Positions 18,323 to 21,491 of a stretch of 64,000 nucleotides of DNA are shown one piece after another. A program made the position numbers and the translations under genes. The DNA is taken from contig BQJC01000004.1 of the NCBI GenBank assembly GCA_021604505.1, positions 304,581-368,580 of the forward strand. The letters run 5' to 3'. Numbering within the stretch: the first letter of the stretch is position 1; each line of letters opens with the position of its first letter. Below the pieces are notes generated by a model. That model was not told where the DNA came from and made no database searches. It saw only the letters and a list, made by a program, of their open reading frames with translations. The DNA is from Nitrospinaceae bacterium. GTDB taxonomy: Bacteria > Nitrospinota > Nitrospinia > Nitrospinales > VA-1.

Positions 18323-19033
18323 ATGGACAAAACACAGATCAATCAAGAAATCGTGTCGGCATTTAAGCTTGCCCTCCCTCCAGTAGCAATGGCCTTCGTC
18401 GATAAACAACCGAACGGGGTGAACACCATTGAGGGTGAATTCCCCTCGTTTTGTACCTTTTGGCGTCTGGCTGAAGAAAAAGTGTTCTATGCATCGGCGG
18501 ATAAACACTATAACTGTCCCATAGGAGCCATGATATTAGGGATAGAGATGCCCAAAGAGGTACAGGAAGAACTGGGTGGTTTGGTTGAAAAAATGTGTGA
18601 ATGTTCGTACCTGTCCGAGGATGAACCGGCAAATATCCCCACACTTTCTAAAAAGATGAGCGGTGTCGTTTATGGCCCATTGAAAGGCTTTCCGGTGGAA
18701 CCTGAATTGGTCATGATGTGGCTGAAACCTTCACAGGCAATGATCTACAACGAGGTTTTGGGGTGCTGTAAATGGTCGGAAAGCATGCAGTCAATGGCTC
18801 TGGGCCGCCCCGCTTGCGCAGTGATCCCAACCACCCTGAACCAATCGCCGTTTGGCATGTCACTCGGTTGTACTGGAATGCGTACCTTCACCGAAATCAG
18901 TGATGACCATATTCTGGCAACCCTTAACTATAAAGAGATAAATTCATTTCTGGCGAACCTTGAAACTACCGTACGTGCCAACAAGCAAATGAAAGATTTT
19001 TATACGGATCATAAAAATAAAATCACTGGCTAA
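18323..19033 (+). CDS. DUF169 (COG2043)-like protein
   Basis: 236 aa with a GGGAGAGGA RBS. Its pattern is PPVAMAFV...FCTFWRLA...NCPIGAMILG...PELVMMWLKPSQAMIYNE...RPACAV...LGCTGMRTFT. This matches my memory of DUF169. It contains a vicinal CC (LGCCKW). Confidence 0.65.
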   Translation: MDKTQINQEIVSAFKLALPPVAMAFVDKQPNGVNTIEGEFPSFCTFWRLAEEKVFYASADKHYNCPIGAMILGIEMPKEVQEELGGLVEKMCECSYLSEDEPANIPTLSKKMSGVVYGPLKGFPVEPELVMMWLKPSQAMIYNEVLGCCKWSESMQSMALGRPACAVIPTTLNQSPFGMSLGCTGMRTFTEISDDHILATLNYKEINSFLANLETTVRANKQMKDFYTDHKNKITG

Positions 19034-19091
19034 ATACGATCCGCTCGTTAGAGGTAAATTAATTGAAACTTTTTATAAAGGGAGAAATATT

Positions 19092-19361
19092 ATGCCAAAG
19101 AGAAAAGTTGAAGTTTTTACAAGCGGTTGTCCAATTTGTGAGTCCACTGTGAATCTTGTTAAAAGGCTAACTTGTCCATCGTGCGAAGTAATTATTTATA
19201 ATTTAACCGATGACCGTAAAAAGGAAGTCTTGGAAAATGCGACCATTTATGGAATCGAAAGGGTTCCCGCCGTTGCGGTGGATGGAAAGCTATTGGAATG
19301 CTGTGCAAAGAATTCCGTTTCTGAAAATATTTTAAAACAGGCAGGGGTTGGAAGCGCCTAA
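19092..19361 (+). CDS. Small thioredoxin-fold protein (glutaredoxin/Thioredoxin_3-like)
   Basis: 89 aa with a GGGAG RBS. It has the redox motif SGCPIC, a second CPSC, a cis-Pro context RVPAVAVDG and a vicinal CC (LECCAK). Confidence 0.7.
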   Translation: MPKRKVEVFTSGCPICESTVNLVKRLTCPSCEVIIYNLTDDRKKEVLENATIYGIERVPAVAVDGKLLECCAKNSVSENILKQAGVGSA

Positions 19362-19389
19362 AGTTTAATCCTGTTTGAAAGTTTTTCCA

Positions 19390-20022
19390 ATGTCATTTAT
19401 TTACATGAAAATCCTCGAGTCCCGTCCTGAGCGATATGATTTAGGGATGGGTCTGTTGACTCTGGGATCGTTGACAAAAATTAAACGTCAAATTGCTGAC
19501 CATACACTTCCCGAAAACCGAGTCCTCGATTTGGGCTGCGGGACCGGGACCTTGGCGCAAATGTGCATTGAACGAGGGGCATGGGTGACAGGGGTTGATG
19601 CCAACAGCGGCATGCTTGAAGTGGCAAAGAGAAATTCTCCTTCCGCGAATTTTCTTAACATCAGCCTCAGCAATCTTGATGACCATTTGGAAGATGAATC
19701 TTTCGATATCATTTTAAGCACGCTTGCATTTAGTGAACTGACCCGCGCAGAAAGACTTCATGTATTAAAACAAATCAAAAGAATTTTGAAAAGCGGAGGA
19801 AAAGTTATTATCGGTGACGAAATCATTCCGGAAAATTTATTAGCCCGGTGCTTTTACTATGCCTTCAGATTACCCATGCAGCTTATTACGTGGATAATGA
19901 CCCAGAATACCACCAACGCGATTTCCAATTTTGAAGATGATGTGCGGCAGTCGGGCATGGAAATCGTCAACCGCAAGCCGTTTATGATGGGCATGTTTAT
20001 CCTTCTGGAAATAAAAAAATGA
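19390..20022 (+). CDS. Class I SAM-dependent methyltransferase
   Basis: SAM motif I VLDLGCGTGTLA, motif II-like FDIILS and motif III-like LKSGGKVIIGD are present. The start is ambiguous (TTG 19375, ATG 19390 or ATG 19405). The stop overlaps the next start as ATGA. Confidence 0.8.
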   Translation: MSFIYMKILESRPERYDLGMGLLTLGSLTKIKRQIADHTLPENRVLDLGCGTGTLAQMCIERGAWVTGVDANSGMLEVAKRNSPSANFLNISLSNLDDHLEDESFDIILSTLAFSELTRAERLHVLKQIKRILKSGGKVIIGDEIIPENLLARCFYYAFRLPMQLITWIMTQNTTNAISNFEDDVRQSGMEIVNRKPFMMGMFILLEIKK

Positions 20023-20888
20023 TCGGTTGGATTAAAGATATCTATCAAACGCTGTTTCGGTTTGCCCGGTTTCCGTGTGAACCCGAAACAATTGCCATTG
20101 GTAATCCCGACAAATCCTCTCCTGTCCTCGTCACATGCAATTTTGATTACACGGTCAGACATCTAAAGAATTATTTGGAAAAAGAGCAAATAGATTGCTT
20201 TCTTTTGGTGGTCAATACCAAAGGCACCAACGTCTGGTGCGCGGCGGCTGAAGGTATTTTTACCACCGAAACGGTCCTGGCCCATTTAAAGGTCTATAAT
20301 GTAAGGGAGTTGGTTGATCACACGCGTTTGATACTTCCGCAATTGTCTGTGGCCGGGGTGAAAAGAAAGGACCTCAAAGAACATGGCTGGGAAGGAATTT
20401 ACGGTCCCGTTTACTTTACCGATTTAAAGGAATTTATAAATAACCGTTTTACTAAAACCAGGGACATGCAGGCTTTAGAATATGGCTATTGGGAGCGTTT
20501 TAAAATGGGTCTCAGCCATGCGGTTTTCTGCACGTTGGTCTGTATCCTTCCAATTTTTCTTTTTGCTTCTGATTGGTGGCTTCAGGCCATCATTTTAGTC
20601 TGGTACTTTGCTTTCAGCATGCAATTGATTGAACATTTCATTCCCATTGATAGATTACTGTATAAAGGGCTGATCCTCACTCTGCCGATCCTGGCACTGG
20701 TATTGTCTTATTCAAACCAGCTCGTTGTAAATATCCAGGCATCGGTCGGGATCATTGCCCTGGGTGCTTATATTGGATTCGATGCCCAAGGTCATTCGCA
20801 TCTCGGACAAAACCAGCATTCAGGGAAATTGACTGCCGGGATTTTTGCATTTTTGGCTTTATTTTATGGAGGTTCCTTGTTGCTATGA
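20019..20888 (+). CDS. HgcA-like corrinoid-binding membrane protein
   Basis: 289 aa. The soluble N-half carries PVLVTCNF, the cap-helix-like NTKGTNVWCAAAEG (Cys codon at 20238-20240), RLILPQLSVAGV and YGPV. The C-half has about 5 hydrophobic helices. This is the HgcA architecture. Confidence 0.8.
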   Translation: MIGWIKDIYQTLFRFARFPCEPETIAIGNPDKSSPVLVTCNFDYTVRHLKNYLEKEQIDCFLLVVNTKGTNVWCAAAEGIFTTETVLAHLKVYNVRELVDHTRLILPQLSVAGVKRKDLKEHGWEGIYGPVYFTDLKEFINNRFTKTRDMQALEYGYWERFKMGLSHAVFCTLVCILPIFLFASDWWLQAIILVWYFAFSMQLIEHFIPIDRLLYKGLILTLPILALVLSYSNQLVVNIQASVGIIALGAYIGFDAQGHSHLGQNQHSGKLTAGIFAFLALFYGGSLLL

Positions 20889-21073
20889 AAAAGTTCGTGG
20901 ATTGGGACAAGATAGAGGAGGAAACATGTTCCGCAGAGGAAGCCTGTGAATGCACGAGAAGCAAATTGCAGTCACTGATTGATTTCGTGGTGGAATTATT
21001 TCCCAAGAAAAAAGAATCACCTTGTTGTGATGAAATGAATAAAATTGAAAAAGGCCAATGCAATGACAAATAA
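20885..21073 (+). CDS. Hypothetical 62-aa Cys-rich acidic protein
   Basis: The start overlaps the HgcA-like stop as ATGA. The protein contains CSAEEACEC, a vicinal PCC and GQC. There is no ferredoxin motif. Coding status is unproven. Confidence 0.45.
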   Translation: MKKFVDWDKIEEETCSAEEACECTRSKLQSLIDFVVELFPKKKESPCCDEMNKIEKGQCNDK

Positions 21074-21491
21074 CCTCTCAATCCCGGCTAAGACGGTAGT
21101 CACTTCCATTTGTCCCACCTGTGGTTGTTCACTGGTAAGGTTGGGAATCGGAGCGGATCGATGGGCTAAGACCACTTATCAAGGGAAGGAGTATTTCTTT
21201 TGTTGCCAGGGATGCGCCGACCTGTTTAATCAGGACCCGCCTAAACACCTCTTGGAAACCCAGGAGTTGGTGGTGTGTCCGACCTGTTTGGCGGAAAAAC
21301 CGGTGCAGTGGACCGTGCGCATGGAAATTGCCGGATGGGAAGTGTTTTTTTGCCGGTGTCCCTATTGCCCGGAAGTATTTCGAAAGGACCCGGATCATTA
21401 CGTCAAGCGTCTACAAGGTGAGATCACCTATGAAGGTGTGTTCGGTCAAACAGGGTGTTGTCCCACGGACACTTCGGGAACCAGCGAGTGA
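21063..21491 (+). CDS. Double YHS/TRASH-like metal-binding domain protein
   Basis: It has two repeats of CPTC...(Y/V)FFC.xxC..(L/V)F..DP..(H/Y). These are CPTCGC...YFFCCQGCADLFNQDP and CPTCLAE...VFFCRCPYCPEVFRKDP. The C-terminal tail is GCCPTD. An alternative TTG start is at 21045. Confidence 0.6.
   Translation: MTNNLSIPAKTVVTSICPTCGCSLVRLGIGADRWAKTTYQGKEYFFCCQGCADLFNQDPPKHLLETQELVVCPTCLAEKPVQWTVRMEIAGWEVFFCRCPYCPEVFRKDPDHYVKRLQGEITYEGVFGQTGCCPTDTSGTSE

Follow-up and report, generated by a model that had tools for sequence, protein, structure and literature searches.

Conserved vicinal cysteine pairs beside a ferredoxin-less HgcA-like protein of Nitrospinaceae may belong to a mer-type thiol relay

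The DNA examined here is a stretch of 64,000 nucleotides from a Nitrospinaceae bacterium (assembly GCA_021604505.1, contig BQJC01000004.1, positions 304,581 to 368,580 of the forward strand), referred to below as the window. Between ligA and degQ it holds a compact cassette, in which a MerR-family regulator gene on the minus strand diverges from six plus-strand genes encoding a DUF169 protein, a thioredoxin-fold (Trx-like) protein, the corrinoid protein-associated S-adenosylmethionine (SAM) methyltransferase CpaM, an HgcA-like corrinoid membrane protein, a 62-residue protein (orf62), and a protein with two tandem TRASH/YHS repeats, called the YHS protein below (Table 1). The subject of this analysis is the set of vicinal cysteine (CC) pairs carried by four of these proteins, and the part that they may play beside the corrinoid protein.

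Table 1. Genes, promoter and vicinal cysteine pairs of the cassette, with positions counted in the window
Feature	Position	Strand	Detail	Basis
Whole cassette	17800..21575	.	low-GC insertion between ligA and degQ	GC contrast and empty sites in relatives
MerR-family regulator	17819..18232	-	137 residues	Pfam MerR_1 and MerR-DNA-bind match
Divergent MerR-type promoter	18241..18271	+		read directly from sequence
DUF169 protein	18323..19033	+	236 residues	Pfam PF02596
CC pair of the DUF169 protein	18764..18769	+	C148-C149, LGCCKW	sequence
Trx-like protein	19092..19361	+	89 residues	Pfam Thioredoxin_3 (PF13192)
CC pair of the Trx-like protein	19299..19304	+	C70-C71, LECCAK	sequence
CpaM	19375..20022	+	corrinoid protein-associated SAM methyltransferase	NCBIfam NF043040
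HgcA-like corrinoid membrane protein	20019..20888	+	289 residues	Pfam CdhD; NF043039 and NF040863 below cut-off
orf62	20885..21073	+	conserved, 62 residues	conserved across Nitrospinota loci
CC pair of orf62	21023..21028	+	C47-C48, SPCCDE	sequence
YHS protein (double TRASH/YHS)	21045..21491	+	148 residues	Pfam YHS (PF04945)
First CC pair of the YHS protein	21201..21206	+	C53-C54, FFCCQGC	sequence
Second CC pair of the YHS protein	21456..21461	+	C138-C139, GCCPTD	sequence

The divergent promoter combines TTGAAC and TACATT elements across a 19-nt spacer, and a perfect 9-bp inverted repeat (AACCTGTAG/CTACAGGTT, 18244–18264) lies inside it. Downstream, ATGA overlaps chain the CpaM gene to the HgcA-like gene (at 20019–20022), and the stop of the latter to the start of orf62. 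The true start of CpaM is likely the ATG at 19390. The TTG start listed for the YHS protein adds an N-terminal extension (21045–21065) that has no counterpart in distant relatives, and an alternative ATG is present at 21063; with either start the gene overlaps the end of orf62.

The cassette (merR plus the six genes, 3.8 kb) has a GC content of 43.7%, versus 52.2% and 48.6% in its flanks, and the gap between ligA and degQ measures about 113 bp in two genomes of the same genus that lack it, so that an empty site can be recognized for the insertion. No convincing flanking repeats or att-like sites were found at the ends of the island. The operon was detected in 16 of 120 Nitrospinota genomes, with protein identities of 75–93%, and the closest loci belong to Nitrospinaceae and Nitrospina metagenome-assembled genomes. 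Because a patchy distribution is combined with high identity across families, these sequence data fit a horizontal acquisition and spread of the cassette.

The initial annotation had called attention to an unusual density of CC dipeptides—five in four neighbouring small proteins, together with many CxxC motifs. All five were found in the genes named, with their codons checked, and the Trx-like protein also has two CxxC motifs and the YHS protein four, six in all. As to the density, residue shuffling within each protein gave a mean of 2.1 CC dipeptides versus the 5 observed (P = 0.050 for a total of at least five; P = 0.017 for all four proteins holding at least one). CC-containing open reading frames (ORFs) make up 4.7% of about 3,580 crude ORFs genome-wide, and this is the sole run of six neighbouring genes with four CC proteins in the genome, where 0.24 such runs are expected. 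The pairs are thus real, but their density alone is only marginally beyond chance for proteins so rich in cysteine, and it becomes significant because the pairs are conserved.

Conservation was followed among distant relatives drawn from a collection of 5.8 billion proteins. The C70-C71 pair of the Trx-like protein is kept in 104 of 106 relatives (63 of the 64 below 70% identity), the FCCQGC motif of the YHS protein in all 120 (101 of 101 below 70%), and its C-terminal GCC in 99 of 111 (89 of 98 below 70%). The tail pair of orf62 is kept in all Nitrospinota genomic copies in which the tail is covered. C148-C149 of the DUF169 protein occurs in 50 of 120 relatives, distributed as 50 of the 51 with at least 70% identity and 0 of the 69 below it. 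Within the close operon set every CC pair is kept, except in one Nitrospinaceae DUF169 copy that reads GSCKW. The alignment of relatives thus bore out the pairs of the Trx-like protein, the YHS protein and orf62, whereas that of DUF169 turned out to be lineage-specific. Likewise, the proposal that vicinal cysteines denote the handling of soft metals of the mercury type finds backing from comparative genomics in three of the four proteins, but not in DUF169. Elsewhere in the same genome and outside the window, only one other locus has three adjacent CC-containing ORFs (contig C1:1168239-1170264); two neighbours there, which share an N-terminal LCTD..FR motif, carry GFCCCCGA and a C-terminal GMCCCTCS.

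The YHS protein is assigned to PF04945 with a score of 51.3 (cut-off 30.3). Each of its two YHS/TRASH repeats holds the ligand cysteines (CxxC ... C-x3-C), conserved in at least 96%, and each of its 13 cysteines is kept in at least 92% of 120 relatives. The AlphaFold2 model contains two confident YHS/TRASH folds, whose cores have a predicted local distance difference test (pLDDT) score above 90, followed by a tail (residues 133–148, pLDDT below 50) that carries the GCC motif and is predicted to be disordered or flexible. Foldseek and hidden Markov model (HMM) searches matched the protein to the zinc YHS domain of phenol hydroxylase and to TRASH zinc ribbons. In the alignment of FCCQGC, the first cysteine occupies the position at which YHS domains canonically bind zinc, and the second stands in place of a serine.

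The Trx-like protein scores 26.6 with Thioredoxin_3 (cut-off 24.8) and its profile matches the thioredoxins 1FO5 and 1NHO; besides the CC pair, it holds a CPIC motif (residues 13–16) and a CPSC motif. Nine distant genomic contexts were read in total. Relatives of the Trx-like protein with about 55% identity are divergent from MerR-MerC in all four loci sampled, three of which add an HMA/MerP-like gene, and one of which holds a second MerR-MerT-MerP set. Among the YHS relatives with about 60% identity, one (locus L141) closes the gene order MerR, DF-family protein, Trx, MerT, MerP, YHS. In another locus, with the order MerA-Grx-YHS, the YHS gene lies two genes past a bona fide MerA (579 bits, cut-off 454) endowed with NmerA and a C-terminal SCCAT. 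A third relative (locus L037) follows a CopZ-MerT-HMA fusion under MerR, in the arrangement MerR-[CopZ-MerT-HMA]-x-YHS. Other YHS relatives, from four loci (L039 to L042), sit beside CopZ_Nterm_CC proteins and Cus/Czc-type resistance-nodulation-division (RND) pumps.

Because of these distant contexts, the Trx-like and double-TRASH families are, as judged from gene neighbourhood, components of mer-type loci. Mer genes also reach the operon itself in relatives: in one Nitrospinaceae genome, a MerT-like gene (VCCVGP, SECCETP) and a periplasmic HMA gene (MerP-like) lie between the Trx-like gene and cpaM, and in a Nitrospirota relative merR-merT-merP adjoins cpaM, the hgcA-like gene, orf62 and the YHS gene.

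Three further observations concern related loci. The DF-family (seleno)protein of L141 (3643-3984; NF049942, 109 bits), near MerT, MerP and the double-TRASH protein, ends in ...HACCR. A 73-residue ORF upstream of the YHS gene in L037 was considered as a homologue of orf62 and rejected, since it is a hydrophobic, unrelated sequence. In a Nitrospirales chromosome (locus L052, 3591-5659), a transposase-like ORF of 543 residues is situated between a truncated Trx-like gene and cpaM.

The regulator carries three cysteines, C84, C119 and C127. Its best structural relative in the PDB is the Hg(II)-bound MerR of Bacillus (4UA1, E 5e-31), with whose Hg ligands C79, C114 and C123 these cysteines align, the loop being one residue shorter. 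The NCBIfam MerR model TIGR02051 is its best match but remains below the cut-off (120.2 vs 150.85), and the scores for the MerR, CadR/PbrR, CueR and ZntR models are near-equal and all below cut-off. The CadR and PbrR structures align with the same three-cysteine pattern.

At the core of the cassette, CpaM is recognized by NF043040 with 252.4 bits (cut-off 180). Of 80 loci spread over many phyla of bacteria and archaea, nearly all have CpaM directly before an HgcA(B)-like gene, to which it is sometimes fused, and the exceptions are loci cut by a contig end. The HgcA-like protein encoded here scores 136.9 bits with the HgcA model NF040863 (cut-off 275), being the only match in the genome (135 bits in that search), and 232.1 with the HgcAB-like model NF043039 (cut-off 285), where it covers profile positions 1–228 of 350. 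Its cap helix reads NVWCAAAEG, including Cys74, so that the GK of the N(V/I)WCA(A/G)GK motif is replaced by AE(G). The protein has lost its ferredoxin domain: no ferredoxin motif follows the HgcA-like gene, and the best match to the HgcB model in the genome reaches 30.6 bits (cut-off 99), inside large unrelated ORFs. Outside the Nitrospinota-type clade, the corrinoid proteins whose C-terminus was covered have a terminal 2x[4Fe-4S] domain and no CC tail.

Two motifs of the membrane domain are peculiar to the ferredoxin-less proteins. One is C171-x3-C175 in a transmembrane helix (SH..FCTLVC, residues 168–175; 20529–20543 in the window), and the other is a QGHSHLGQ loop (residues 257–264; about 20787–20810). 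The combination SH..FC(T/S)xxC plus QGHSH(L/F)GQ occurs in 18 of 18 ferredoxin-less proteins and in 0 of 54 relatives of the fused or other types. The presence of these ligand-like residues coincides with that of the mer-type accessory genes, and the CxxxC and QGHSH motifs may form a path for metal in the membrane domain.

The small protein orf62 combines an invariant CECT motif (C21, C23) with a variable, cysteine-rich tail containing the CC pair. An exhaustive HMMER search returned 13 representatives; across the Nitrospinota loci the protein is 80–88% identical, and the tail pair is present in intact divergent copies, whereas the copies without it look frame-shifted. On this sequence conservation orf62 is a real gene. 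The idea that it is a relic of the HgcB ferredoxin domain was rejected (hhalign probability 0.05%).

The DUF169 protein (PF02596, score 85.3 vs cut-off 27) has four invariant cysteines, C44, C65, C165 and C183, as judged from the alignment and 120 relatives, and its CC pair is probably incidental and not part of any relay. Its structure did not point to a function: the AlphaFold2 model is good (pLDDT 87), but neither a fold match in the PDB (best TM 0.24) nor a sequence match to solved structures was found. On an unrelated metagenomic contig (locus L130, 4330-8764), a 50%-identical DUF169 protein lies directly before CpaM and an HgcAB-like fusion, and after a radical SAM protein with a CUAEP/CCAEP tail, a relative of the arsinothricin enzyme ArsL; because of this arrangement, the link between DUF169 and CpaM reaches beyond Nitrospinota. 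A second DUF169 relative is encoded after an ArsR regulator.

Several known systems invite comparison with this cassette. The first is the mercury methylase HgcA/HgcB (Parks 2013; Smith 2015; Zheng 2024, PMC11588087), in which C73, C94 and C95 of HgcB are required for mercury methylation and SAM is the methyl donor (PMC11588087). Common to both are the cysteine-ligated corrinoid domain, the NVWCA cap helix, the membrane anchor and the link to SAM as methyl source, and the cysteine and C-terminal CC of HgcB have their likeness in orf62, with its CECT and CC, and in the YHS protein, with its GCC tail. Unlike HgcAB, however, the cassette comes without an HgcB ferredoxin in the operon or in the genome, its HgcA score is below cut-off, its cysteine pairs are spread over separate small proteins with other folds, and its HgcA-like protein belongs to the fused-HgcAB/CpaM clade. 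With the CpaM plus HgcAB-like pair of that clade (NF043040/NF043039) it shares a CpaM above cut-off and an HgcA-like gene immediately after it. It departs from that pair in lacking the 2x[4Fe-4S] tail, in the clade-specific transmembrane CxxxC and QGHSH motifs, and in its MerR, DUF169, Trx-like, orf62 and YHS neighbours, which are absent from other phyla.

Another is the mer operon, with the CC pairs of MerT and MerC, MerP, NmerA and the C-terminal CC of MerA (Boyd & Barkay 2012, PMC3466566). Here the likeness lies in the MerR-type regulator with three cysteines, the divergent promoter with its 19-bp spacer, the vicinal cysteines on flexible tails, and accessory families that are common to real mer loci. 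In contrast, this genome lacks MerA, MerT, MerC and MerP, and the end-point of the cassette is a corrinoid/SAM module, not a reductase. Among archaeal mer systems, the MerH/TRASH proteins of Sulfolobus (Ettema 2003; Schelert 2006, cited in PMC3466566) are described as stand-alone TRASH-type cysteine proteins encoded with mercury genes, and TRASH proteins have been proposed as Hg(II) traffickers in those operons (PMC3466566). As far as that description goes, the protein encoded here is set apart by its two tandem YHS/TRASH repeats, its extra cysteines and its GCC tail.

These comparisons lead to the reading favoured here, which is judged to stand evenly poised between right and wrong: a mer-derived thiol relay would deliver an Hg(II)-like metal to the SAM/corrinoid methyl-transfer module. 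With the same even balance, the cassette can be seen as a MerR-controlled union of CpaM and a ferredoxin-less HgcA-like core with CC proteins recruited from mer-type trafficking. The sequences establish the motifs with their conservation, the mer-type surroundings of the Trx-like and TRASH families, the lost ferredoxin domain and the insertion of the cassette; the relay to the corrinoid protein, with the identity of the metal, its binding by the CC pairs, the order of transfer and methylation as the outcome, is inferred, and would run as follows. A thiophilic metal ion, most likely Hg(II), would activate the three-cysteine MerR at the 19-bp-spacer promoter. Cytoplasmic metal would then be taken up by the Trx-fold protein through its CPxC and CC motifs, where that protein exists, and passed on to the double-TRASH protein, whose disordered GCC tail may serve as a swinging arm, in the manner of the C-terminal CC of MerA or HgcB. 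The protein orf62, translationally coupled to the HgcA-like gene, would replace with its CECT and CC tail the Cys73/Cys94/Cys95 triad of the missing HgcB. Finally, the metal would reach the corrinoid ligated by Cys74, itself methylated beforehand by CpaM from SAM, after which the methylated product would leave.

Several points weigh against such a relay. The only solved relatives of the YHS protein bind structural zinc through the canonical cysteines, and some YHS relatives sit with genes of the Cu/Ag type (CopZ, Cus-like RND) rather than with Hg genes. About half of the Nitrospinota operon copies lack the Trx-like gene or carry it truncated; the gene is therefore not essential and, by the state of these copies, appears dispensable or decaying in the operon. 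The DUF169 pair, as noted, is not conserved outside the close clade. The CpaM/HgcAB-like core lacks metal-handling neighbours elsewhere: when the neighbours of 64 loci in other phyla were clustered, no metal genes emerged as conserved accessories, only TetR-like regulators and parts of ABC transporters, in 8–10 loci. No match to MerT was found in this genome; MerA is missing from the cassette and its best genome match stays at 381 bits (cut-off 454), and no classical mer or hgcB gene elsewhere in the genome rises above cut-off. Among the genes of the operon there is no evident source of low-potential electrons for Co(I), and the hosts respire oxygen. Moreover, the tested members of the fused-HgcAB clade do not methylate mercury (PMC10083202), and as of 2026 there is no hgcA-carrying Nitrospina isolate and methylation is unconfirmed (PMC12874090, PMC10083202).

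Some of these points would suit CC proteins that handle a soft metal, not necessarily mercury, for purposes other than methylation. They could buffer or detoxify Cu(I), Ag(I), Cd, Pb or As(III), or else the corrinoid protein could act on a metalloid, a thiol or a halomethane, or demethylate. Such a role is regarded as rather improbable. It would agree with the near-equal, sub-threshold scores of the regulator and the three cysteines shared by the CadR/PbrR structures, with the CopZ-type and Cus/Czc-type RND genes near some YHS relatives, with the one DUF169 relative placed after ArsR and the other beside a CCAEP-tail radical SAM protein related to ArsL, and with the inability of the tested fused HgcAB proteins to methylate mercury. 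However, most of the neighbours that could be named for the Trx-like and YHS families are mer genes (MerC, MerT, MerP, MerA), one relative has MerT- and MerP-like genes within its operon, and the regulator finds its closest structural counterpart in an Hg(II) MerR. CpaM, the HgcA-like gene and orf62 are, in addition, tightly coupled in translation by their ATGA overlaps, and it can therefore be argued that the metal proteins work jointly with the methyl-transfer core.

Alternatively, the cysteine-rich proteins may be redox or structural components holding Fe-S clusters or zinc, which would replace the lost ferredoxin as the electron path to the Co(I) corrinoid; the candidates are the DUF169 protein with its four invariant cysteines, the Trx-like protein with six, and the YHS protein with its TRASH sites. 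Since the ferredoxin domain is missing, some donor is required, and DUF169 recurs before CpaM and an HgcAB-like protein in another phylum; the solved relative of the YHS fold holds its structural zinc at the same cysteine positions, and the neighbouring family CopZ_Nterm_CC is a putative Fe-S-binding metallochaperone with CC in its signature. This explanation is nevertheless deemed unlikely. It is weakened because the Trx-like and YHS families occur in mer-type loci with no corrinoid protein to reduce. Furthermore, a disordered C-terminal GCC tail is no place for a cluster, the extra cysteine of FCCQGC and the tail pair go beyond the four canonical TRASH ligands and yet are kept in at least 92% of relatives, and the HgcAB-like protein of L130 retains its own ferredoxin domain despite the presence of DUF169.

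Lastly, it is hardly credible that the many CC dipeptides simply follow from proteins rich in cysteine and serve no function: the shuffling result (2.1 expected vs 5 seen, P of about 0.05), the expectation of about 0.24 such gene runs per genome, the restricted DUF169 pair and the GSCKW copy would allow it, but four of the five pairs are conserved, three of them at 89–100% in relatives down to 45–55% identity and in unrelated contexts, and the tail pair of orf62 recurs in divergent intact copies, so that chance is refuted for the Trx-like and YHS pairs and survives only for that of DUF169.

The gene neighbourhood itself has already been published. The same cluster (MerR1, DUF169, a UbiE-type methyltransferase, HgcA-like and YHS) was drawn by Villar et al. 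2019/2020 (bioRxiv 10.1101/648329), who proposed control by MerR and discussed the cluster as possibly Hg-regulated. That report makes no mention of the Trx-like gene, the 62-residue gene, any cysteine pair or the mer-type loci in which the accessory families occur, and an analysis of a cysteine relay was not found in the literature searched. Lin et al. 2023 placed all Nitrospina, which lack a neighbouring hgcB, in the fused clade (PMC10083202).

Two unnamed families also join the inventory of bacterial mer-type loci through this analysis: a Trx-fold protein with CPxC, CxxC and CC motifs, and a double-TRASH protein with a GCC tail. The latter contrasts with a survey from 2012, where stand-alone TRASH proteins were reported only in Sulfolobus mer operons and never in bacterial ones (PMC3466566). 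The conserved CC accessories common to real mer operons, together with the gain of membrane cysteines by the HgcA-like protein at the loss of its ferredoxin, turn a vague argument from genomic context into a model that can be tested residue by residue.

No hgcA homologues are more abundant in the open ocean than the hgcA-like genes of the Nitrospina type, which are widely cited as the likely source of methylmercury in oxic subsurface water, with a function that is unproven and without the HgcB that is essential in known methylators (bioRxiv 10.1101/648329, PMC12874090, PMC10083202). The cassette suggests how mercury might be supplied, in these abundant ocean bacteria, to a B12-dependent methylating enzyme in the absence of its usual partner. 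A bolder extension, on balance doubtful, is that it represents a mobile resistance unit of the mer kind, where SAM/corrinoid methylation has taken the place of mercuric reductase. Hg(II) would then induce its own methylation in aerobic marine nitrite oxidisers, with orf62 and the TRASH GCC tail supplying the HgcB-like triad and the CxxxC/HSH residues of the HgcA-like protein providing the path for the metal. If this were true, a mobile mer-like methylation cassette would be the missing mechanism of methylmercury production in oxic ocean water.

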